DNA from: a virus
DNA length: 64,000 nt
IMG/VR virus record: IMGVR_UViG_3300020578_000011
Strand: one strand, 5' to 3'
The notes beneath the pieces are model-generated. The model saw only the letters and a list, made by a program, of their open reading frames with translations, was not told the DNA's origin and made no database searches. The translations under genes and the position numbers were made by a program. Below, one piece after another: positions 12,241 to 63,243 of the stretch. Positions within the stretch are counted from its first letter, which is position 1. Each line of letters opens with the position of its first letter.

Positions 12241-14589
12241 ATGTTTTCTATACCAACCATGCACGGATCTTTGAGTAAATTGCTTCAAAAAGATTATAGT
12301 AATTTATTATTTAATGGAAGTATATATTGCTCGACACAAGACGATCAGCATATTTATCTTGGTGGTGATTTTACAAATATAATTAATACAACACTTACAA
12401 AATCATATAGAAATGCATTAATTAATAAATTAGATGGATCTTTAGTTAATTCTGTAGTTAGATCATATTTAAATGGAGATGTTAATTCTTACGCCATAGA
12501 TGGCGAGTATATGTATATAGGTGGAAGTTTTACTAGTTATAATAATGTAACTAGAAATCGCATAGCTAAAATTAATATCCAAACTGGAATATTAGATTCC
12601 GTTTTTGATCCTGGAGACGGCTTTAGTAATAATGTTTTTTCAATTATTTTAGATGGGAATGATTTATATATATGTGGAAGTTTTAGTAGGTATAATAATA
12701 TAATGGCACAAGGTTTGGTTAAAATAAACAAAACAACTGGTGCATATGATAGTTCTTTTAATACATCTACTGGTTTTGATTCTAGTGTTTATTCGATGTT
12801 ATTAAATGGAAATGATTTATATATTGGTGGAGCTTTTAGCAGCTATAAAGGACAAACAAGAAATCGTTTAGTTAAAATTAATAAACTCACAGCAGCAGTT
12901 GATCCTGTTTTTGATATTTCTGGTGGATTTAGTTCTAGTATATATACATTGGCTTTAGATGGCAATAATTTATATGTTGGTGGAGCTTTTAGCAGCTATA
13001 AAGGACAAACAAGAAATCGTTTAGCTAAAATTAATAAAGACACAGCTATTGAAGTGGATACAGTCGGTACTGGTTTTAGTACTACTAGTGGATTTGATTC
13101 CTCTGTTAATTCATTATTATTAGATGGAAACAATCTATATGCAGGTGGTATGTTTACAGCTTACAAAAATAAAGTAAGAGAAAGAATAGTCAAGATAGAT
13201 AAAACAACAGCCGCAGAAGTAGATGCATCTGGTACTGGTTTTAGTACTACTAGTGGATTTAGTTTTCAAATTAAAACCATGATGGTTGACGGCAATAATC
13301 TATATGTTGGTGGAGCTTTTAGCAGCTATAAAGGAAACACCAGAGGGCATATAGTTAAAATAAACAAAGACACAGCAGCAGAAGTAGATGCATCTGGTAC
13401 TGGTTTTAGTACAACTAGTGGGTTTAATAATGCTGTTTATTCAATGGCAAGCACACCATATGGTTTGTATGTTAGTGGTTCTTTTACCACTTATAAATTA
13501 GATAATTTTTTTAATCGTTCTCGTATTGTTAAAATAAATAAAAAAACATCATTAATAGATACTGATTTTAATACATCTAGTGGTTTTAATAGTAGCGTTC
13601 TTTCAATACTTGTAAATGAAAATGATCTATATGTTGGTGGTTCTTTTTCAGGTTATTCGTCAAATGATAGACAATATTTAGCTAAAATAAACAAAATTAC
13701 AGCAGCAATTGATCCTGTTTTTGATATTTCTGGTGGATTTAGTTCTAGTATATATACATTGGCTTTAGATGGCAATAATTTATATGTTGGTGGTCAGTTT
13801 ACTTTCTACAAAGAAAACGCTAGACAACGAATTGTTAAAATAGATAAAATAACAGCAGCAGAAGTAGATCCCAATGGCACTGGCTTTAGTACTACTAGTG
13901 GGTTTAACAATACAGTAAGATCGATATTGTTAGATGGAAATAATTTATATGCGGGTGGTGTGTTTACAGCTTACAAAAATAAAGTAAGAGGAAGAATAGT
14001 CAAGATAGATAAAACAACAGCAGCAGAAGTAGATGCATCTGGTACTGGTTTTAGTAAAGGCGGAGACGTTGATCTCTCGTCTCCATTCGATCCAATTGTT
14101 TCTTATGGTTTTACTGATTATGTTACAAGTTTACTTATAGATGGAAATAATATATATGTTGGCGGCGGTTTTAGCGGATACATGGATGGATTATCAACTA
14201 TCATAACAAGCAATCTTGCAAAAATAAATAAAAACACAGCTATTTTAGAATCTTTTGGTGCTAGTTCAAAATTTAATAATCCAGTTAACTTGATTGCAAT
14301 AGATGGTAATAATTTATATATTGGTGGTTTATTTACCTCATATTTATCTAACACTAGACAACGAATTGTTAAAATAGATAAAACAACAGCAGCAGAAGTA
14401 GATGCATCTGGTACTGGTTTTAGTACAACTAGTGGGTTTAGTGCTCAAGTTTCATCTATTTTATTAGATAATAATTATATTTATATAAGTGGTAGTTTTA
14501 CTACATATAAAAACAATTCAAAAACACATTTTATCGTTCTTGATAAAAATAATATTTCTACTTCATTAAAATATTTTATATTAGGTTAA
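12241..14589 (+). CDS. Beta-propeller repeat protein (delta-60/DUF5122-like), probable receptor-binding or tail appendage
   Basis: About 14 blades of F.S.V.S..LDGNNLYVGG.F..YK...R.RIVKI.K. Several blades are near-identical at DNA level. Confidence 0.75.
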   Translation: MFSIPTMHGSLSKLLQKDYSNLLFNGSIYCSTQDDQHIYLGGDFTNIINTTLTKSYRNALINKLDGSLVNSVVRSYLNGDVNSYAIDGEYMYIGGSFTSYNNVTRNRIAKINIQTGILDSVFDPGDGFSNNVFSIILDGNDLYICGSFSRYNNIMAQGLVKINKTTGAYDSSFNTSTGFDSSVYSMLLNGNDLYIGGAFSSYKGQTRNRLVKINKLTAAVDPVFDISGGFSSSIYTLALDGNNLYVGGAFSSYKGQTRNRLAKINKDTAIEVDTVGTGFSTTSGFDSSVNSLLLDGNNLYAGGMFTAYKNKVRERIVKIDKTTAAEVDASGTGFSTTSGFSFQIKTMMVDGNNLYVGGAFSSYKGNTRGHIVKINKDTAAEVDASGTGFSTTSGFNNAVYSMASTPYGLYVSGSFTTYKLDNFFNRSRIVKINKKTSLIDTDFNTSSGFNSSVLSILVNENDLYVGGSFSGYSSNDRQYLAKINKITAAIDPVFDISGGFSSSIYTLALDGNNLYVGGQFTFYKENARQRIVKIDKITAAEVDPNGTGFSTTSGFNNTVRSILLDGNNLYAGGVFTAYKNKVRGRIVKIDKTTAAEVDASGTGFSKGGDVDLSSPFDPIVSYGFTDYVTSLLIDGNNIYVGGGFSGYMDGLSTIITSNLAKINKNTAILESFGASSKFNNPVNLIAIDGNNLYIGGLFTSYLSNTRQRIVKIDKTTAAEVDASGTGFSTTSGFSAQVSSILLDNNYIYISGSFTTYKNNSKTHFIVLDKNNISTSLKYFILG

Positions 14590-17420: not shown

Positions 17421-18074
17421 ATGGCAGATAAATCTTTATTAGGTAGTTATAGCGATCCAACTGGTACATATACTTTTACGGGTCTTGGTCTTGTTCCAAT
17501 TGGAACAATTTTGGCTATTGGTGATGCGGGAGCATGGGCGTTGCCGGCGAATGGTGCAATCAAAGATGGCTATGCACTATGCAATGGTCAAGAAAAACCC
17601 GCAGGAAGTGCGGCTGGGCTTGCGGCAAACTTGCCCAACTTAACCGACGATCGTTTTTTGCATGGATCAACGGCTATAGGAGGCACGGGCGGTTCCACGT
17701 CAAAAACGACCACGGGAATTGCCGCAAGTTTCGATAAAAACGTAATGAATACGAATCAAAACGCACATTTTCATAAATTGCCGTTCTGGGGATACACAAA
17801 CGAGAGTGGTACGTTTGGTCAACTAAACTTTACTATGAATACAAACCAAAATGGTCGTGGATATTATGGTGAAACTAATGTTGGTGGAAGTGCGGGTGCT
17901 ATTGCATCTACTTCTTCTGTTATTATCACACCTGCTAATGTAACTAATGTTAACTCGTCATCAGAATCAATTACATGGAACTCAGCCACCGTAACTACGA
18001 CAATTACGCAAGGTACAATCGCCGATATTCGTCCCAACTATTTCAATGTTGTTTATGTCATGCGGGTTGCATAA
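17421..18074 (+). CDS. Tail collar domain protein / short fibre
   Basis: VPIGTIL...GYALCNGQ...LPNLTDDRFLHG and C-terminal IRPNYFNVVYVMRV are collar-domain signatures. Confidence 0.85.
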   Translation: MADKSLLGSYSDPTGTYTFTGLGLVPIGTILAIGDAGAWALPANGAIKDGYALCNGQEKPAGSAAGLAANLPNLTDDRFLHGSTAIGGTGGSTSKTTTGIAASFDKNVMNTNQNAHFHKLPFWGYTNESGTFGQLNFTMNTNQNGRGYYGETNVGGSAGAIASTSSVIITPANVTNVNSSSESITWNSATVTTTITQGTIADIRPNYFNVVYVMRVA

Positions 18075-18310
18075 TGGAATATAAAATTAAGTTTAAGCAT
18101 ATGACATCTTGGTTTTGGAAAAAAATACAAGCAGCTGGTCATTCTTATAATAAAGAAATTGATAAGTTAATTATCTTTAAAAAAGATGGATCTATTGAAG
18201 AGATACCAGAATGGTCTAAATGCTATGTGAAACTTGATACTGATTTTATCTTAGCTCAAAAAAAGGATATGGAAAAAGAATCTGGCATTGATATTAAATT
18301 AAATGTTTAA
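18074..18310 (+). CDS. Hypothetical protein (78 aa)
   Basis: The ATG overlaps the upstream TAA (TAATG coupling). The track start at 17975 is probably too long. Confidence 0.65.
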   Translation: MEYKIKFKHMTSWFWKKIQAAGHSYNKEIDKLIIFKKDGSIEEIPEWSKCYVKLDTDFILAQKKDMEKESGIDIKLNV

Positions 18311-18375
18311 TTATTTACAATATGTTTAATGTGTTTATTTGTTAGTATAACAATACTAATCAATGGAGAACTTTC

Positions 18376-18489
18376 ATGAGTAATATTATAGTCAAAGATA
18401 CAACAACTGCTGTTTCTAATATACTTGAAACAATCAGACCCATGTCTGTGATTAAAAAAGAAGATCAACAGTTTTTAGTTGCTCAGTAG
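18376..18489 (+). CDS. Small ORF (37 aa, MSNIIVKDTTTAVSNILETIRPMSVIKKEDQQFLVAQ)
   Basis: GGAGA RBS before the ATG and a TATAAC -10-like element upstream. Below the ORF-track cutoff. Confidence 0.4.
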   Translation: MSNIIVKDTTTAVSNILETIRPMSVIKKEDQQFLVAQ

Positions 18490-21766: not shown

Positions 21767-21960
21767 TATTTATTCTCTTCTTGAGTCTGAGAGATTTCTT
21801 CTTGCTTGCCTGTTTTTAGATTTGTAATTAAGATTCGAACACATCCAGTGTTTTTGTCCATAGCTTGAAGTTCGATTTTATATTCATCGCCAATGAAAAA
21901 TGGACGACGCTTACTTAGCCACCAGTACATTGCGGTTTCTATTTTACGATCTGTAGACAT
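21766..21960 (-). CDS. Hypothetical protein (64 aa)
   Basis: GGAGG RBS upstream; translationally coupled to primase. Confidence 0.7.
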   Translation of the reverse strand: MSTDRKIETAMYWWLSKRRPFFIGDEYKIELQAMDKNTGCVRILITNLKTGKQEEISQTQEENK

Positions 21961-22015: not shown

Positions 22016-23419
22016 ATGAGAATAGAAATCCTTAATCATGTAATAAGGATAGACGATCCAGATAAAGAAATAGAATCGGATTTAATTAAAAAATTAACCT
22101 ATACAGATAAGTCAAAACAATATCAAATAAAAAAAATGCAAAAAAATCCATTTTCAATAAAATCTAAACTTTATCAAAAGTTAATAAATGAAGTTAATGG
22201 ATCTTTAATTGAAAAAGTTGATAATACTATTTTTGTCCCATCTGGTTTTGCTAAATATGTTATTGACTTAGTATCTAAAATTAAATCTGTTGAAATTATT
22301 GATTCAAGATACGAAACAGGTTCAAACATTGCCCTACCGTGGGCAAGTGGTTCTTATTTACTTGAATTGAGAGATTATCAAAAAGAAGCCATCGACATAG
22401 CAGTATCAAATTGGCGAGGCATAATAAACTTTGCAACAGGTCTTGGAAAAACTAAAACAGCAATATCTTTAATACGAACACTAAAAAAAAAGACACTTAT
22501 AATATGTCCATCAAACTCTGTTGCAAATCAATTTAAAGACGAATTAATTCTTGCATTTGGTCAGAATAGAATTGGTTTTATAGGCGATAGTAAATTTAAA
22601 CCTTCAGATATAACCGTATGTATAGCTGCATCTGCTAATAATCACATAGATAAAATAAAGAAATTTGATTTAGGTTTAGTTATATTTGACGAATGTCATC
22701 ATTGTCCTGCCAATACCTTTTATTCTATATCACAGGGATTGTCGCATGTTGGACGTATGTACGGATTAACTGCCACTTCTTTTAGATCTGATGGTAAAGA
22801 TGTCATGATAACAGCAGATTGTGGAGACATATTGGTTAAAAGAGATGCAGCATGGGGAATTGCAAATAACTGGTTAGCTCAACCATATTTTATAGTTAGA
22901 AAAGTAAATACAACAGGTTTTGATTTTAAAGATGACAAATTAAAATCATATAAAAATCATGTTTTAAATTCAAAAGAAATGACATCAAGAATAGAATCAG
23001 ATGCTAAAAACTTTATACAAGCAAACAAATCAGTACTTATATTAGTAGATGAGGTTGAGCATGGAGAATCTTTATCAAAAGCTCTAAAAATTCCTTTTGC
23101 TCAAGGTGAAGATAAACAATCAAATGAATATGTCGATCAATTAAACAAAGGTCTTATTCCTGGTCTTGTTGGAACAGATGGAAAAATATCAGAAGGAACA
23201 GATACTAGAAATGTAGATATTCTTATATTAGCTAATTTTAGTGCATCTAAAGGAGCCGTTTTACAAGCCGTAGGTAGAGGTCTGAGAAAAACAGATACAA
23301 AAAATCATGTTATAATTTTAGATTATATCCCAGCTGGATCTACTATGTTAAGTAGACATGCTAATCAACGTATTTCTTTTTATCAAGAAATTACGTCTAA
23401 TATAAAATTGGTAGAATAA
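22016..23419 (+). CDS. SF2 DExH helicase (UvsW-like)
   Basis: LRDYQ, ATGLGKT, DECH, GLTAT, EGTD and QAVGRGLR motifs. Confidence 0.9.
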   Translation: MRIEILNHVIRIDDPDKEIESDLIKKLTYTDKSKQYQIKKMQKNPFSIKSKLYQKLINEVNGSLIEKVDNTIFVPSGFAKYVIDLVSKIKSVEIIDSRYETGSNIALPWASGSYLLELRDYQKEAIDIAVSNWRGIINFATGLGKTKTAISLIRTLKKKTLIICPSNSVANQFKDELILAFGQNRIGFIGDSKFKPSDITVCIAASANNHIDKIKKFDLGLVIFDECHHCPANTFYSISQGLSHVGRMYGLTATSFRSDGKDVMITADCGDILVKRDAAWGIANNWLAQPYFIVRKVNTTGFDFKDDKLKSYKNHVLNSKEMTSRIESDAKNFIQANKSVLILVDEVEHGESLSKALKIPFAQGEDKQSNEYVDQLNKGLIPGLVGTDGKISEGTDTRNVDILILANFSASKGAVLQAVGRGLRKTDTKNHVIILDYIPAGSTMLSRHANQRISFYQEITSNIKLVE

Positions 23420-23423
23420 CATT

Positions 23424-23670
23424 TATCAAGATACATCCCTCTTGGTGGCTTCCGTCGTCTTGGAGCTAGAAAAAAATGTTAGAGACATGGGGCATCGGTG
23501 CTCCAATGAAAGCTGATAGGTTATGTGTGTTCTGGTCTTTTCATCGCAAGATCCGTTGGCTTGGATATGTTTTAGGACCTTGTTATGGGTTTGGTCAGGC
23601 TTAAAAGCGGACCTCAGACGCAGCAACCGAGCACAAATAGAAAAGACGTGCACACAAGGGTAAGTGTATA
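23424..23670 (+). ncRNA. Candidate structured ncRNA, 6S-like rod
   Basis: About 45% GC intergenic island downstream of TGGTAGAAT (23409-23417). Nested 5'/3' helices enclose a central asymmetric bulge (see findings). Confidence 0.5.
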
Positions 23671-23703
23671 AAATGCCCATTATATTTACTTAGGAGATTT
23701 TAA

Positions 23704-24132
23704 ATGAATCCAGAAAACAAATGTGCTAAACTTTGGAATCAAGAAGTCCCTAAATTAGAACACGATCAACAATCTTTAAATAAGATTTTTGAAATGCAAA
23801 AATCTCTACAACTTCGTCTTGGTCAAGATTTTTCTAAAATGACTCTTCATGAAAAAGTATCTTTAATAAAGGACAATTGGACTTCTTTAACATCAGAATA
23901 TGTTGAATTATTAGAACGTCTTCCATGGAAAGCATGGAAAAAATACTCTGATGAACAAAAAACAGATTGGATTTCCGAAGAACAAAAATTAGAAACATAT
24001 TATGAAGTATGCGATATGATGCATTTTATGATAAATATTTGTTTATTAGTAGGCGTAGATGCAGATACAATGTGGAAGCTTTACTATACAAAGAATGCAG
24101 AAAATTTTGCTAGACAAGACAGAGGTTATTAA
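23704..24132 (+). CDS. All-alpha dimeric dUTPase/dCTPase (MazG-like fold)
   Basis: SEYVELL..LPWK.WK, E..D..HF and KNAENFARQDRGY motifs; AGGAG RBS. Confidence 0.85.
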   Translation: MNPENKCAKLWNQEVPKLEHDQQSLNKIFEMQKSLQLRLGQDFSKMTLHEKVSLIKDNWTSLTSEYVELLERLPWKAWKKYSDEQKTDWISEEQKLETYYEVCDMMHFMINICLLVGVDADTMWKLYYTKNAENFARQDRGY

Positions 24133-42940: not shown

Positions 42941-45900
42941 ATGCAGTGTGCCCGGTTGTGAAAGAGTGGTTTTAGCAAAAAATTACTGCAAACAACATTA
43001 TAAAAAATTCATATCAAGACCTAAGGAAAGAGCTCAAAAAGCAGCCTTGGCAAAGGTTGTTAAAGAAAATAAAGAAATAGAAATAGAAATCAAACCTAAA
43101 GAAGCGATAGAGATAAAAGATCCTCAGATAAAGAGCAATATAAAGTTAACAGCCGAGCAATTAGAGAAGATATTTTTTTCTCCCTGTAGAACTGAGCAAG
43201 AATTAAAAAATTATATTAAATTCTTTTTCGGTCTTCATCTCCCCGATTTTAAGGTATCGAGATACGCGGATACGACGCCCTTCCATGCCATTTGGGAGGT
43301 GTATGACATAACAGTAAATAAAAACAACCCTAAAAATATCCAAGAAATTCTATATGTTGCAGGACGTGGTAGCGGGAAGTGCGTTTTGCAAGACACTGAG
43401 ATTCTTACGCAAAATGGACTTAAACGTGTACAAGACGTCAAGATCGGCGATGTGGTCTGGACAGGCTGGTCCTGGAGATCAGTAGTCCAGACCTTCGACG
43501 AGGGAATCAAAGACGGAGTCACTTTAATCACCAAGTTTATGAGCAAGCACGGCGTGTGGTCGCTCACTGGTTCTTTAAAGCATCGCGTTCAGGCACTGCA
43601 TCCAGAGACCAACAAGATCGACTGGGTATACATGAAAGATCTAACTCCTGGTCAGCTAGTCTATAGATCTATAGAATCCTTGGGCCATCTGGTGGACGTT
43701 TCTTCTAAGGACTACGATCTTGGCTGGGTTGCTGGCTGCATAGTCGGCGACGGTTGTGTGGGCAGAGGAACAAACACGAATATATCTATGTGTGCAAAAG
43801 ACCCAGACCAGCTTGTACACTATGTGAGTCTGATAGACAGGCACCTAGGTGTGACGATAAACGTAAATTCCAGCTCTAAGTCTTCTGCTATAAAGAATGC
43901 GTCGTCTTCTACTAAGGCGTTCAGAGACTTCTTTAGGACGTACGTCGAGGGTGAACTCTGCTACTTCAAGAAACTAAAGACATTAGACCACAGTCCAAGC
44001 TTCTTGGCTGGATTCATCTCCGGTCTGATGGAGACCGATGGGTCCAAGGACTCGATCACTCTAGCCAACCCAGAACTCATACAGCAGATAGCCAAGATCC
44101 TCAATGTCTTCGGCGTGCACTCTGTAATAAATAAGAAGCGGAGAAAAGCGTCGACCACAAAGTTCGTAAAAGATCACATTGTCGAGTATCACTCGGTTGA
44201 GTACAAAACCCCGCTTCCAGAGTATGTAATGCCGCTTTTCTCTAAGCGCGATGCCTTTAAGGCGCACGCCGTCAAGATGAACGAACAGTTCCGATATCCT
44301 TCTAAGCTCATAAAGTCTTTTGCGGACCACATAAAGCAAAAATACGAGATCGCAAACGGGTACTGGCGTTTAGAGGCCGGCAAGAAAACTCATTCCGAGA
44401 TCAAGTACTCTAAGGATCTCTGGGGATCCGGCGAGAAGTCTAAAGAGTCTTATGTCTATGGCCACAAGATCGACTACTTTATAAGTCTGGCCAACCGCTT
44501 AGAAGAGCACGAGTGGGCAGAGTATCTGTCTTTCATCAGAAAGGGTTGCTACGAGACCGTAGATACCATAACGTTCGGCAAGCACTATTTCTACGATCTA
44601 GAGGTAGACGTCGATCACGCGTACTGGTCGAACGGCTTCATCAGCCATAACACTCTCGGCATGGCTATTGCAGAATTGATGGTTCTACTGCATGATCAAA
44701 GAGACGTGGTACATGTTGGCGCAATTCTTTCTCAGGCAAAAAGATGCTATGAATATCAGCAGAAGTTTTTATTAAACGATAGAATTAAACCAATCGTTAT
44801 GCCTCCTAAGACGCCAGAGGCATCTAGAATTCTTGAAAGAACAACAATGGAAAGATCTACGTTTAATGTATCTGGCGAAAAGATAACATTAGAAGTTCTT
44901 CCGTGTACATTGAAAGCATTAAACGGCCCACACGTTCCACTTGTTGTAGTTGATGAGATCGATACAGTATCTGGCGAGTCTGTCAAGGCATATAAGGAAA
45001 TATCTGGAATGCTTGACTCAAAAAGAGGAAAAAGACCTCTTCGTGTTGGTATTTCGACTAGAAAAACTAGATACGGTCTGATGAATCAAGCTATTGAAAA
45101 TGCAGAAAAACAAGGAAGAAATGTAAGAAGATGGACTGCATTTGAGTTTACAGAAAGATGTCCAGATTCAAGATCTGGAACTTCTAAAATAGAATTATTT
45201 ATTGATCAAAATTCTTTTGATGTCAGAACAAGAAATGATTATGAAAGATTAGCAACTCAAAAACAAAAAGACTATGAAAGACATGAGATGTTTGAAGGGT
45301 GCTTGAAATGTCCACTTGCACCAATATGCTTAGGTGATGCTAAAAAACAATCTTCTAAATCATCAATGTTAAAATCGATTGATGAACTTGCTCAAAAAGT
45401 CTTATCAGAAGGACCAGATTGGGCAATGGCTCAGCTTATGAATTTAAAACCAAGTGTAGAAGGAATTATATATAAAGAATTTGATGAAAGAACCCATGTC
45501 AAAACATGGAATCAAATGTGGCTTATTTTAACTGGTAAAGAGTTCCCTGGCGAGTGTGATCATGATATTTTTATAAAAAAATGTCACTCAATGGGACTTC
45601 AAGCATATGCAGGAATCGACTGGGGTTGGTCTAATCCACATACTTTGGTTGTATTTTTTGTAGACAGTAGAGAAAATATATATGTAGTTAGATGCGATGG
45701 TCAAACATACATATCAAGACCGGCATGGATGCATATAGTAAAACATAAATGGCATAATAACTATAGAATTCAATTATATTTTCCTGATATGGCAGACCCA
45801 GGTGATGCTCAGGAAATGAGAAAAATGGGTCTTCCGACTACAACTAACTCAGAAAAATCAAATATCAATGCAGGTGTTCAAGTTATTAAAAAATGGTTAA

Positions 45901-60534: not shown

Positions 60535-60537
60535 TTT

Positions 60538-63243
60538 GTGTTTCAGAAGGATGAGGAGACAATCGACGTATTATCGACCCGTCATCTTGGTCTTATTCCA
60601 GAAGGCCATCCTGATCGTAAAAAAATAGCTCAGCATATTAATAATCTAAGAACATCAAATCCAAATGAAGCAAGACGTTTGTATGATCGTTTCATAAGTG
60701 GTGGCGGTAGCTACATCAAAGATAAATCTGAAATTAATATTAAAGTAAATAAATCAGAAAATAATATTAATTTAACTTTAAAAAATCATTTTGAAGGTTC
60801 TTCTACTTCTCCAACTGAGTACCACTATTCGGTTCACAAAAATGGTGATGAAATTGGTCGTGCAATTGTCTTTGATAAAGACCCAAGATCAATACACTCT
60901 CAAGGCAAAGAAGGTGCTTCTTTAAAAGATATAAGAATAAAACCAGAACATCATGGCAAAGGATACTCTGAGCACATAATCAATTCACTTGTTGAAAAAC
61001 ATGGTCCACTTGCGTCCGATAGTAGAGGAAATATATCCGAAGCCGGACATAAGATGTTTAGTAAATATGGTTCTTCAATAAAATCAAAAGAAAATAAAGA
61101 TTTATATATGTTTGGAGGATCTGTGAAAAAATATTTATCTACTGAAAAATTACCTTTGTATTCTGAGTACATAGAACCGCTACAAAAGGGCGAGAAGTTT
61201 CCTCATTTTTTGAATTTCATGGGTAACCACCCTAAAGCTCGAGAAACAGCTCAATGGGTTGATGAAAATATAAAACACAGAAATTTGGCTGAGTTAGCTA
61301 TGCGTCATGCAAAAACTAAGCCAGAGGGTCTTAACGACGAAGAAAAAACTCACATTAAGCACTTTAATGATTCACTGCATATGCCAGAAGTTCAAAAGGC
61401 TGCCGGTTCGATAACAAGTCAGCATGATTTTTCTAGTGGAATTGAGCTATTGAAAGAAGCGGAATCTGCTTATCAAAAAAGACATGCAAAAGAAGCTCCT
61501 ACGTTAGTTTCGACGGAAGGAGAAAAGTTATTAGATTTTGGCGATGGAGTTGGTGTTTATAGACTTCCGTTAAATGCAGACCGTAAAAATAAAAACGAAG
61601 CCACAGCTATGGGCCATTGTGCTACTCCACATAAAGGCGGGGAGTTGTGGTCTATTAGACGTGACCACGGTAATGGAATGGTTGAACCTTTAATATCCAT
61701 ATCGCACGAAGGCGGCTATCTTGGTGAAATGAAAGGAAAACATAATTGGAAGCCATCAGCAAAACATCACGGACATATTGCTAAGTTGTTGGCGTCCGAT
61801 AAAATTAAAGGGTTTGTTGGAGGAGGGTATGCTCCAGAAAGCAACTTTGAAATTTCTGATTTAAGTGAAGGATTTAAGAATAAATTATTAGAATATAAGC
61901 CATCTTTAATTCAAAAAGTTTATAAAGAAAATTTGCCAGAAGGGTTTCAAGGAGACTATAATCATACTCCTGAAATTAAAAGTATTTTTAGTACAAGTGA
62001 TTTAGCTGCTCAACAAAAATATTTAGCAAAAATTAGTGAAAATACGGACCAGCGTAGACGTGTTCTCTGGAGCGCAGCAACAAACCCACACACACACCCA
62101 GACATTCTTCACAAACTAGCAGAAGACTCTGACCAAGATGTTGTCTGGAGCGTATCACATAACCCAAATACACATCCAGATACTCTCCACAAACTAGCAG
62201 AAGACTCTGACTACGGTGTTCTCTGGAGCGTATCAACAAACCCAAATACACATCCAGATACTCTTCACAAACTAGCAGAAGACCCTGGATACGAGTTACG
62301 CGAAAACGTAGCACTACACCCAAATACACATCCAGATACTCTCCACAAACTAGCAGAAGACCCTTATGTTCGCAAAAGCGTAGCAACAAACCCACAATTC
62401 AAAAATTTACCGCTAGAAATACAACAAAAAGTAAGACCACTTGTAAATACACCTATTCAAAAAATTATTGCTATGATTAATGATGGAGAAAATAACCCAG
62501 ACCCTGCTCATGAAGCAACAGAAGAGCTAAAATTACGCCGTCAAGAAAAATACGACAAAATTCTTTCTCCAGAAGGAAACTTAAGTGATATTCAGCATTT
62601 ATCTGAATCACACAATAATAATATTGCAAGACGAGCTAGAAATGAATTAAAACGCAGAGGATTACAAAAATCAGATCTTGAGCATAGTTTAGAATTTGCT
62701 AAAAAATACAAATCTTTAGCCAAGCATGCAGTAGATCAAGGAGACAAAGAAGGTGCTACTAAATATATGAAATCTTTATTAATTCATTTACAAAAAAGTT
62801 ATCAATTTTTAAACAATGAAAGATTTGAAAAATCTCAAAAAAATCACCCTAAAGGTGGTCTTTCTAGAAAAGAAGCTAAAAAACACGGAATACATGCCGG
62901 CATAGAAACACACGATGAAGTTAAGAGAAAAGGTGGAGTAAGCAAACTATCTAACAAAACATCTGCTCGACGTAGAAGTTTTTGTGCTCGCCACTGTGGG
63001 ATGAAGCGCAAGTTTCCTAAAGCATACAAAGATAGGCAGTCAAAAGGAAACAAAGCACTCCGCGTATGGCATTGTGGATCTTGTTCTAATTGGCTTAAGA
63101 AATCAATTGGAGCAGATGATACAATAAAATTCTATGAAGATCAAGACAATTTAATAATAGAATTTGACAATGATGTTCCACATGAAATAGAAACACTTGT
63201 CGTCGCATCTATTCTAGCTAAAGGATTTAAAGAAAATGAATAA
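60538..63243 (+). CDS. Polyvalent protein: GNAT-like + PcfJ-like + LRV repeats + DUF6321-like
   Basis: IKPEHHGKGYS (acetyl-CoA motif), EATAMGHC...EMKGKHN, NPNTHPDTLHKLAED repeats, and RRRSFCAR...KALRVWHC. Confidence 0.7.
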   Translation: MFQKDEETIDVLSTRHLGLIPEGHPDRKKIAQHINNLRTSNPNEARRLYDRFISGGGSYIKDKSEINIKVNKSENNINLTLKNHFEGSSTSPTEYHYSVHKNGDEIGRAIVFDKDPRSIHSQGKEGASLKDIRIKPEHHGKGYSEHIINSLVEKHGPLASDSRGNISEAGHKMFSKYGSSIKSKENKDLYMFGGSVKKYLSTEKLPLYSEYIEPLQKGEKFPHFLNFMGNHPKARETAQWVDENIKHRNLAELAMRHAKTKPEGLNDEEKTHIKHFNDSLHMPEVQKAAGSITSQHDFSSGIELLKEAESAYQKRHAKEAPTLVSTEGEKLLDFGDGVGVYRLPLNADRKNKNEATAMGHCATPHKGGELWSIRRDHGNGMVEPLISISHEGGYLGEMKGKHNWKPSAKHHGHIAKLLASDKIKGFVGGGYAPESNFEISDLSEGFKNKLLEYKPSLIQKVYKENLPEGFQGDYNHTPEIKSIFSTSDLAAQQKYLAKISENTDQRRRVLWSAATNPHTHPDILHKLAEDSDQDVVWSVSHNPNTHPDTLHKLAEDSDYGVLWSVSTNPNTHPDTLHKLAEDPGYELRENVALHPNTHPDTLHKLAEDPYVRKSVATNPQFKNLPLEIQQKVRPLVNTPIQKIIAMINDGENNPDPAHEATEELKLRRQEKYDKILSPEGNLSDIQHLSESHNNNIARRARNELKRRGLQKSDLEHSLEFAKKYKSLAKHAVDQGDKEGATKYMKSLLIHLQKSYQFLNNERFEKSQKNHPKGGLSRKEAKKHGIHAGIETHDEVKRKGGVSKLSNKTSARRRSFCARHCGMKRKFPKAYKDRQSKGNKALRVWHCGSCSNWLKKSIGADDTIKFYEDQDNLIIEFDNDVPHEIETLVVASILAKGFKENE
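62060..62395 (+). repeat. 72-bp-period tandem repeats encoding leucine-rich-variant (LRV) repeats
   Basis: Four to five near-identical copies of aacccaaatacacatccagatactct(c/t)cacaaactagcagaagac. Confidence 0.9.

Follow-up and report, generated by a model that had tools for sequence, protein, structure and literature searches.

Apart from transfer RNAs (tRNAs), introns and a handful of riboswitch-like motifs, large uncultured phages have yielded few structured RNAs so far. The manA (RF01745) and wcaG motifs are structured RNAs of large myophages that lie in the likely 5′ untranslated regions of metabolic genes, including nucleotide-synthesis and chaperone genes, and are presumed to be cis-regulatory with an unknown ligand (Weinberg 2010, PMC2864571). 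In T4-type phages, promoter-early stem-loop (PeSL) cassettes are repeated many times per genome, with stem-loops that are effective terminators (Arbiol 2010, PMC2839356). A third point of reference is 6S RNA, whose mechanism is summarized in PMC8545117. Here we analysed a 64,000-nucleotide (nt) stretch of viral DNA (IMG/VR record IMGVR_UViG_3300020578_000011; hereafter the window) and focused on the 284-nt gap at 23420-23703 between a superfamily 2 (SF2) helicase gene and a dUTPase gene. An initial annotation had read this gap as a phage-encoded 6S-like rod acting as an RNA polymerase decoy. Sequence comparison indicates that the gap holds a lineage-restricted, ~260-nt structured non-coding RNA inserted in a variable slot, with a predicted fold that is branched and unlike that of 6S RNA.

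A non-coding element under purifying selection in a variable slot

The gene order primase, helicase, dUTPase, methylase, chaperonin is common among uncultured ~150-180-kb phages. Comparison with records L002-L009, L059-L063 and L069-L071 showed that the helicase/dUTPase junction is a hypervariable slot within it. Depending on the relative, the slot holds an 11-nt gap, one or two 100-amino-acid (aa) open reading frames (ORFs), a pair of ORFs of 189 and 71 aa, a lysozyme-like gene or the RNA element. In relatives with the 11-nt gap, the Shine-Dalgarno (SD) sequence overlaps the stop codon. Since relatives that lack the element join helicase and dUTPase by this short gap, the insertion appears to have brought its own control region.

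Among the searches for homologues, one metagenome scan and contig look-ups gave three further distinct variants in total; in the assembly collection, the dUTPase of the window’s phage occurs in 38 blocks. The element was found only in the window’s phage (L072 is identical) and, at the same position, in L001, L064/L066 and L073, with L065, L067 and L074 being near-copies of L064. Helicases of the element-bearing phages are 77-84% identical to the window’s. The IMG/VR pattern scans returned only the known contig, two contigs carrying the element’s 3′ module (described below) and three chance matches. A covariance model of the core found no second copy or relative of the element elsewhere in the window or in five viral records, and the window holds no repeat or mobile-element copies of it. 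Pattern scans of 185,579 species genomes for a host-derived origin gave either nothing or chance-level matches without flanking likeness.

A 26-bit match of the core model in a 165-kb relative (L080) proved false, as it sits inside a repetitive coding ORF; low-scoring covariance-model matches in such AT-rich phages need a coding check. The source of this match is a large minus-strand ORF made up of ~170-nt tandem repeats (L080:1165-3150).

The element is non-coding, under purifying selection and specific to the + strand. Between clades, its identity was 0.62-0.68 (gaps counted as mismatches) compared with 0.46-0.58 at four-fold sites of the flanking genes; between L001 and L064, the values were 0.87 and 0.55-0.60, respectively. 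Identity above that of four-fold sites means that the sequence is constrained. This constraint is patchy, with invariant blocks alternating with variable stems.

The initial annotation had stated that protein-level conservation of a minus-strand 84-aa ORF would count as a refutation, and this did not turn up. Although open in the window, this frame is broken in all relatives (truncated to 26 and 47 aa) and has no Pfam match. No + frame is kept across the homologues, whose indel lengths are not multiples of three, and gene callers called nothing within the gap in four other records. A short + ORF from 23476 (MLxxW start) does have its start codon in all four sequences; it is 42, 10, 12 or 21 aa long, lacks a conserved SD and varies at codons that overlap compensatory RNA pairs. 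A blastx search of the element against the ORFs that fill the slot in other phages returned nothing, and we rejected a remnant of these accessory ORFs. Taken together, a gene remnant or small protein on either strand is scarcely credible. We also rejected a tRNA-like core, suggested by the resemblance of one hairpin (hairpin a, below) to a D-arm, as there is no conserved T-loop or anticodon arm. ARAGORN, run with standard, intron and pseudogene settings, found no tRNA or transfer-messenger RNA and gave only inconsistent calls at a 70% threshold.

Conserved fold and its comparative support

The conserved fold is predicted to be branched. Downstream of two 5′ hairpins, H1 and another, lies a domain that has GUCUUUUC/GAAAAGAC as its closing helix and contains three hairpins. 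The features of the element and its edges are as follows.

23409-23417, + strand: TGGTAGAAT, extended -10-like motif shared with the 3′ end of the helicase gene (last codons and stop, K-L-V-E-stop)
23425-23446, + strand: predicted hairpin H1, AUCAAGA / 8-nt loop / UCUUGGU, directly 3′ of the helicase stop
23457-23486, + strand: predicted H2′, an irregular 8-base-pair (bp) hairpin from RNAalifold, GUC-UU-..-AGC / loop / GUU-.-GA-GAC
23488-23505, + strand: predicted hairpin e, UGGG/UCCA stem with a loop holding CGGU (23496-23499), the 5′ strand of pairing X
23512-23515, + strand: GCUG, second 5′ strand of pairing X, with partner CAGC at 23621-23624
23535-23647, + strand: core domain, bounded by helix Y, in which GUCUUUUC (23535-42) pairs with GAAAAGAC (23640-47)
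Inside the core domain, + strand: predicted hairpins a (23551-66, loop GUUGGNUU), h3 (23578-89) and b (23593-613), and a single-stranded 3′ stretch
23621-23629, + strand: CAGC-A-ACCG, 3′ strand of pairing X, which crosses helix Y
23652-23683, + strand: 3′ module ACACAAGGGUAAGUGUAUAAAAUGCCCAUUAU, with hairpin c (GGGUA 23658-62 / UGCCC 23674-78) and then GC-rich GCCC
23684-23706, + strand: U-rich spacer, SD AGGAG (23692-96) and dUTPase ATG (23704-06), read from sequence

We scored nine helices in a four-sequence alignment (A2): H2′, e, X (two segments), Y, a, h3, b and c. The set comprises 47 pairs, with 99.5% of cells paired and 10 pairs changed on both sides. All six slid controls gave 0 double changes, and none of 500 shuffles reached the score. 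Compensatory changes are spread over five separate helices. The helices hold 19 G-U cells and 0 A-C cells, indicating that the fold belongs to the + strand RNA.

Covariation is clearest in the local hairpins. In hairpin a, the loop GUUGGNUU is nearly invariant and the stem varies (AUCC, ACCC, GCUC or ACUC), with 3 compensatory pairs; for comparison, column shuffles produced a stack with at least 3 double changes in 1% of trials. Hairpin b contains 2 compensatory pairs. H1 forms in all five variants with an ensemble probability of 0.63-0.94, showing one U-U cell and two compensatory pairs (C-G to U-A and A-U to G-C) that were counted after allowing for a loop-length difference. As these hairpins are short-range, with a much narrower search space, we consider a, b and H1 to be well-supported predictions. 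In H2′, 100% of cells are paired and two pairs show double-sided changes; H2′ is less secure, as each of the four sequences could also form a shorter hairpin (GGCUUC/GGAGCU) that competes with it.

The long-range pairing X links the 5′ region to the core domain. The stem of hairpin e is nearly invariant and thus uninformative on covariation, and its loop sequence co-changes with the distal partner of X. Specifically, the window and L073 have CGGU/ACCG, where L001 has UGGC/GCUA and L064 has UGGC/GCCA. In the second segment, GCUG/CAGC in the window and L073 becomes ACUG/CAGU (G-C to A-U) in L001 and L064. In total, 2 + 1 pairs of X changed on both sides, with 100% of cells paired. Helix Y is invariant in all four sequences and has a pairing probability of 0.99 in the window; the Y-constrained fold is the minimum free energy (MFE) structure or lies within 2.7 kcal/mol of it in each of the four. 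Forming X as a nested pairing in place of Y is ~5-15 kcal/mol worse (window, L001 and L064), and on this cost we rejected X as a nested alternative to Y. Since X crosses Y and nesting is costly, X, if real, would be a pseudoknot contact that joins the hairpin e loop to the unpaired 3′ stretch of the core domain. Overall, we grade X and H2′ as probable from the alignment, while Y, e and c are conserved and covariation gives no test of these helices.

This architecture bears directly on the proposed 6S rod, in which a phage RNA would mimic an open promoter and sequester the host sigma-70 holoenzyme. Every helix strand, coordinate and strand assignment named by the initial annotation was exact, as was its G+C count of 116/260, and the window sequence does contain the described pairings. 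In the relatives, the three outer closing stems are 87.5%, 62.5% and 79% paired, with 0 compensatory changes. Their mean pair probability is at most 0.009 in the window’s own ensemble, the MFE structure is not the rod, and their 5′ strands go into the covarying H1 (loop and 3′ strand), which takes up bases of two of the stems. The inner stem survives only in part: its 4-bp core (23496-99/23626-29) covaries as a segment of X, which crosses helix Y. The helix that the annotation had listed as competing with the rod (gtcttttc/gaaaagac) is helix Y itself.

Homology searches gave the same answer. The likeness of GUGCUCC and GCUUAAAA to E. coli 6S segments is unsupported, and Rfam covariance models returned no 6S or other family match, whether at gathering score in the window, at E <= 10 in 23300-23800 or at E <= 1 in the elements of three homologous loci. 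The branched conserved architecture, in ~260 nt compared with roughly 180 nt for 6S RNAs, is not a 6S-type rod. Missing homology alone would leave a functional analogue possible, and a promoter-like motif does precede the element; with every testable defining feature of 6S having failed, family membership is refuted and a 6S-like decoy is highly improbable. What stands of the original proposal is a + strand structured non-coding RNA after a promoter-like motif. More generally, a hand-drawn ‘6S-like rod’ can arise from real complementary segments that comparative data reject.

Genomic surroundings and the two edges of the element

The SF2 helicase gene (22016-23419, +; 467 aa; Pfam ResIII and DEAD matches) is only loosely ‘UvsW-like’, with its top cultured-phage match, in Myxococcus phage Mx1, at 27.6% identity. 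The dimeric dUTPase gene (23704-24132, +; 142 aa; Pfam dUTPase_2 match) is followed on the same strand by a DNA methylase-like gene and then a Cpn60-family chaperonin gene. In L001, the helicase has 818 aa rather than 467 (L001:1555-4011; also L009:1564-4008), with ~350 aa inserted after about residue 131. Pfam matches of this insert to Hom_end, Hom_end_hint and LAGLIDADG_3 point to an intein with a homing endonuclease. The helicases of the window, L064 and L073 lack the intein, and similar 809-810-aa forms occur in more distant relatives.

G+C content at 23421-23680 is 44.6% (the 95th percentile among 260-nt windows) compared with 33.3% for the whole window. The gap had been described as the largest GC-rich one; it does have the highest G+C of the gaps longer than 60 nt (43-45% versus 33% for the window), but other gaps are longer. 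Two more long, ORF-poor gaps (no ORF of at least 60 aa) lie at 42941-43538 (598 nt, 38% G+C) and 60535-61053 (519 nt, 35% G+C), neither of which contains a match to the core covariance model. Elsewhere in the window, diverged 153/165-nt repeats form a long array at 12497-14516 within a 782-aa ORF (12241-14589, +) that probably encodes a repeat-rich structural protein, and 4-5 tandem 78-nt repeats (71-89% identical) occur at 62060-62396 within a 729-aa ORF (61054-63243).

At the 5′ edge, the extended -10 that the initial annotation had placed ahead of the element is present as TGGTAGAAT and is invariant in all four phages. In the final 990 nt of the helicase gene, TTGGTAGAATAA exceeds in length every other nucleotide run that the four phages share unchanged; 24% of codons in this region are nucleotide-invariant, and it contains no other invariant 4-codon window. 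The motif is thus under selection at the nucleotide level. The shorter motif GGTANAAT is rarer than expected in the window (6 found versus 10.8 expected), with copies at 12689, 18012, 21994(-), 23410, 46236 and 54199, five of which lie just before a gene start or gap. Examples of this type include TGGTATAAT before a divergent gene at 21960 and TGGTACAAT before 54243. Downstream of the copy at 18012 comes an AT-rich gap of 408 nt (18075-18482). We infer that TGGTAGAAT is a candidate promoter of this phage’s -10 type, from which transcription would start ~7 nt downstream, near 23424 at the foot of H1.

At the 3′ edge, the 32-nt module is the most conserved block of the element. Hairpin c carries an invariant 11-nt loop containing TATAAA, a second -10-like box (23667), and its stem changes from U-G to C-G and from A-U to G-U to G-C with pairing always kept. 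The distance from hairpin c to the SD is 8-11 nt in all four phages. Two IMG/VR contigs from another phage (L075 and L076) also carry the module, 29/32 identical (score 49 versus a null maximum of 25), between tRNA-Lys and tRNA-Met and 2-4 nt before tRNA-Met. Matches of the core model in these contigs rest on this module, and looser pattern matches to it elsewhere were chance. It is single-copy both in the window and in the tRNA locus of the other phage. The module thus seems to be small and portable, and may be a promoter or a processing hairpin.

In L075 (13370-13502), the module follows tRNA-Lys(UUU) in a tRNA cluster. In L076 (2484-3135), this tRNA has a replaced 5′ half, with an HNH/endonuclease VII-like ORF (2484-2987) immediately upstream, an arrangement that suggests a homing-endonuclease insertion at the tRNA gene. 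Both contigs are half-complete and contain no helicase or chaperonin homologue, which is uninformative on their kinship to the window’s phage.

Candidate roles and comparison with known RNAs

The first and only downstream gene is the dUTPase at 23704, and no strong terminator stands between it and the element, which makes an operon leader the likeliest role for the RNA. We therefore tentatively favour, at somewhat short of an even chance, a structured 5′ leader of the dUTPase-methylase-chaperonin operon that would act in cis as an attenuator or riboswitch-like switch. Transcription from TGGTAGAAT would yield a long leader whose 5′ hairpin loop contacts the unpaired strand of the core domain, through pairing X across helix Y. 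A ligand or protein would then set the fold state, and this state would decide the passage of RNA polymerase or ribosomes at the 3′ hairpin and U-rich tract before the SD. Consistent with a leader, the promoter-like motif, covarying domain, hairpin c with U-rich tract, SD and dUTPase gene follow one another on one strand. Two conserved helices, X and Y, also cross. A cis-acting element for the dUTPase operon around gtcttttc/gaaaagac, which the initial annotation had named as the main alternative to its rod, fits the evidence better than 6S.

Several observations weigh against a regulatory leader. Other phages express the same operon without the element, no such element precedes the dUTPase homologues (44-73% identity) of other contexts, and the single gene context provides no association with one gene class across lineages. 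No ligand or partner is indicated. Hairpin c would be a poor terminator given its 5-7 bp stem and 11-nt loop, and a terminator scan flagged no terminator-like site, hairpin c included. As the module elsewhere precedes a tRNA gene without a U-tract, a promoter or processing site suits it better than an expression platform; if it is a second promoter, its dUTPase transcripts would lack the leader. The structural evidence itself comes from only four distinct sequences in two deep clades, and helices were picked post hoc after listing all column-consistent stacks of the same alignment. Column shuffles gave at least 2 stacks with at least 2 double changes in 11% of trials. In addition, thermodynamic support is weak, with z-scores of -1.1 to -1.7 for the core, and single-sequence ensembles disagree over several helices. 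Over the full 260 nt, the fold is no more stable than shuffles (z = -1.07 on the + strand and -1.15 on the minus strand).

The same observations can be read in other ways. The element may instead be a free-standing gene for a trans-acting or stable non-coding RNA, ‘moron’-like cargo transcribed from TGGTAGAAT and ended or processed at the 3′ module. Its invariant loops would then target a protein or RNA of the host or phage, while the dUTPase operon restarts from the module’s TATAAA. In keeping with cargo, the slot elsewhere holds unrelated accessory ORFs or nothing, the RNA is large and branched with invariant loops (GUUGGNUU, AGUGUAUAAAA and CUAGA), and the same module in another phage follows a stable RNA (a tRNA) and directly precedes the next RNA gene. 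Its G+C content of 43-46% in a 33% genome also fits, raised G+C being typical of stable RNAs in AT-rich genomes. Without a convincing intrinsic terminator, a second copy or relative in the window or the five viral records, or any suggested partner, this possibility is on the unlikely side. A more specific version is a new class of pseudoknotted, branched phage RNA that acts in trans and enters variable slots as a self-contained cassette with its own promoter, RNA and 3′ promoter or processing module. Such an RNA might, for example, soak up a protein or act as a decoy for a component of defence or transcription, and its role would then go beyond tuning the dUTPase operon; in our judgement, this is unlikely. 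A role at the DNA level only, with promoters, operator-like inverted repeats or a recombination cassette and with helices that are chance or protein-binding palindromes, would account for the two promoter-like motifs and the weak stability z-scores. It would also suit a module that is a small inverted repeat around a -10-like box shared by unrelated contexts, resembling PeSLs (PMC2839356). However, 19 G-U versus 0 A-C cells, compensatory changes in five helices and conservation above the synonymous rate over the ~200 nt between the promoter-like motifs make a DNA-only role improbable.

The operon downstream of the element encodes nucleotide sanitation, DNA methylation and a phage chaperonin. 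If the element is a leader that senses a ligand or protein, it would reveal how such a phage sets the timing or level of this dUTPase-methylase-chaperonin operon; if it is a free RNA, it would add RNA to the cargo that moves through variable slots.

Compared with known systems, the element shares with 6S RNA (SsrS; RF00013 and 6S-Flavo RF01685) the form of a GC-enriched, sense-strand non-coding RNA of a few hundred nt with a sigma-70-like -10 upstream, and one conserved long-range pairing. Unlike 6S, its ends lack a conserved closing stem, and its branched, probably pseudoknotted fold is no rod with a central bubble. The 3′ module resembles PeSL cassettes in being a short unit of a variable region that unites a candidate sigma-70-like promoter element and a stem-loop, and in occurring in different contexts; unlike them, it is single-copy and has a weak stem-loop that encloses the -10-like box. 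Like attenuating riboswitches and leader RNAs, the element follows the order candidate promoter, covarying domain, hairpin with U-rich tract, SD and gene, and has mutually crossing helices; unlike known riboswitches, it matches no aptamer class, has a weak terminator, lacks a cross-lineage gene association and indicates no ligand. In function, the manA and wcaG motifs of T4-like cyanophages come closest. The element has no homology to these and differs in lacking an Rfam match, in its larger size, and in being represented by four close variants in a single gene context. Against this background, we regard the element as a new RNA motif of a known general kind, predicted from modest but coherent covariation within a narrow phage lineage.

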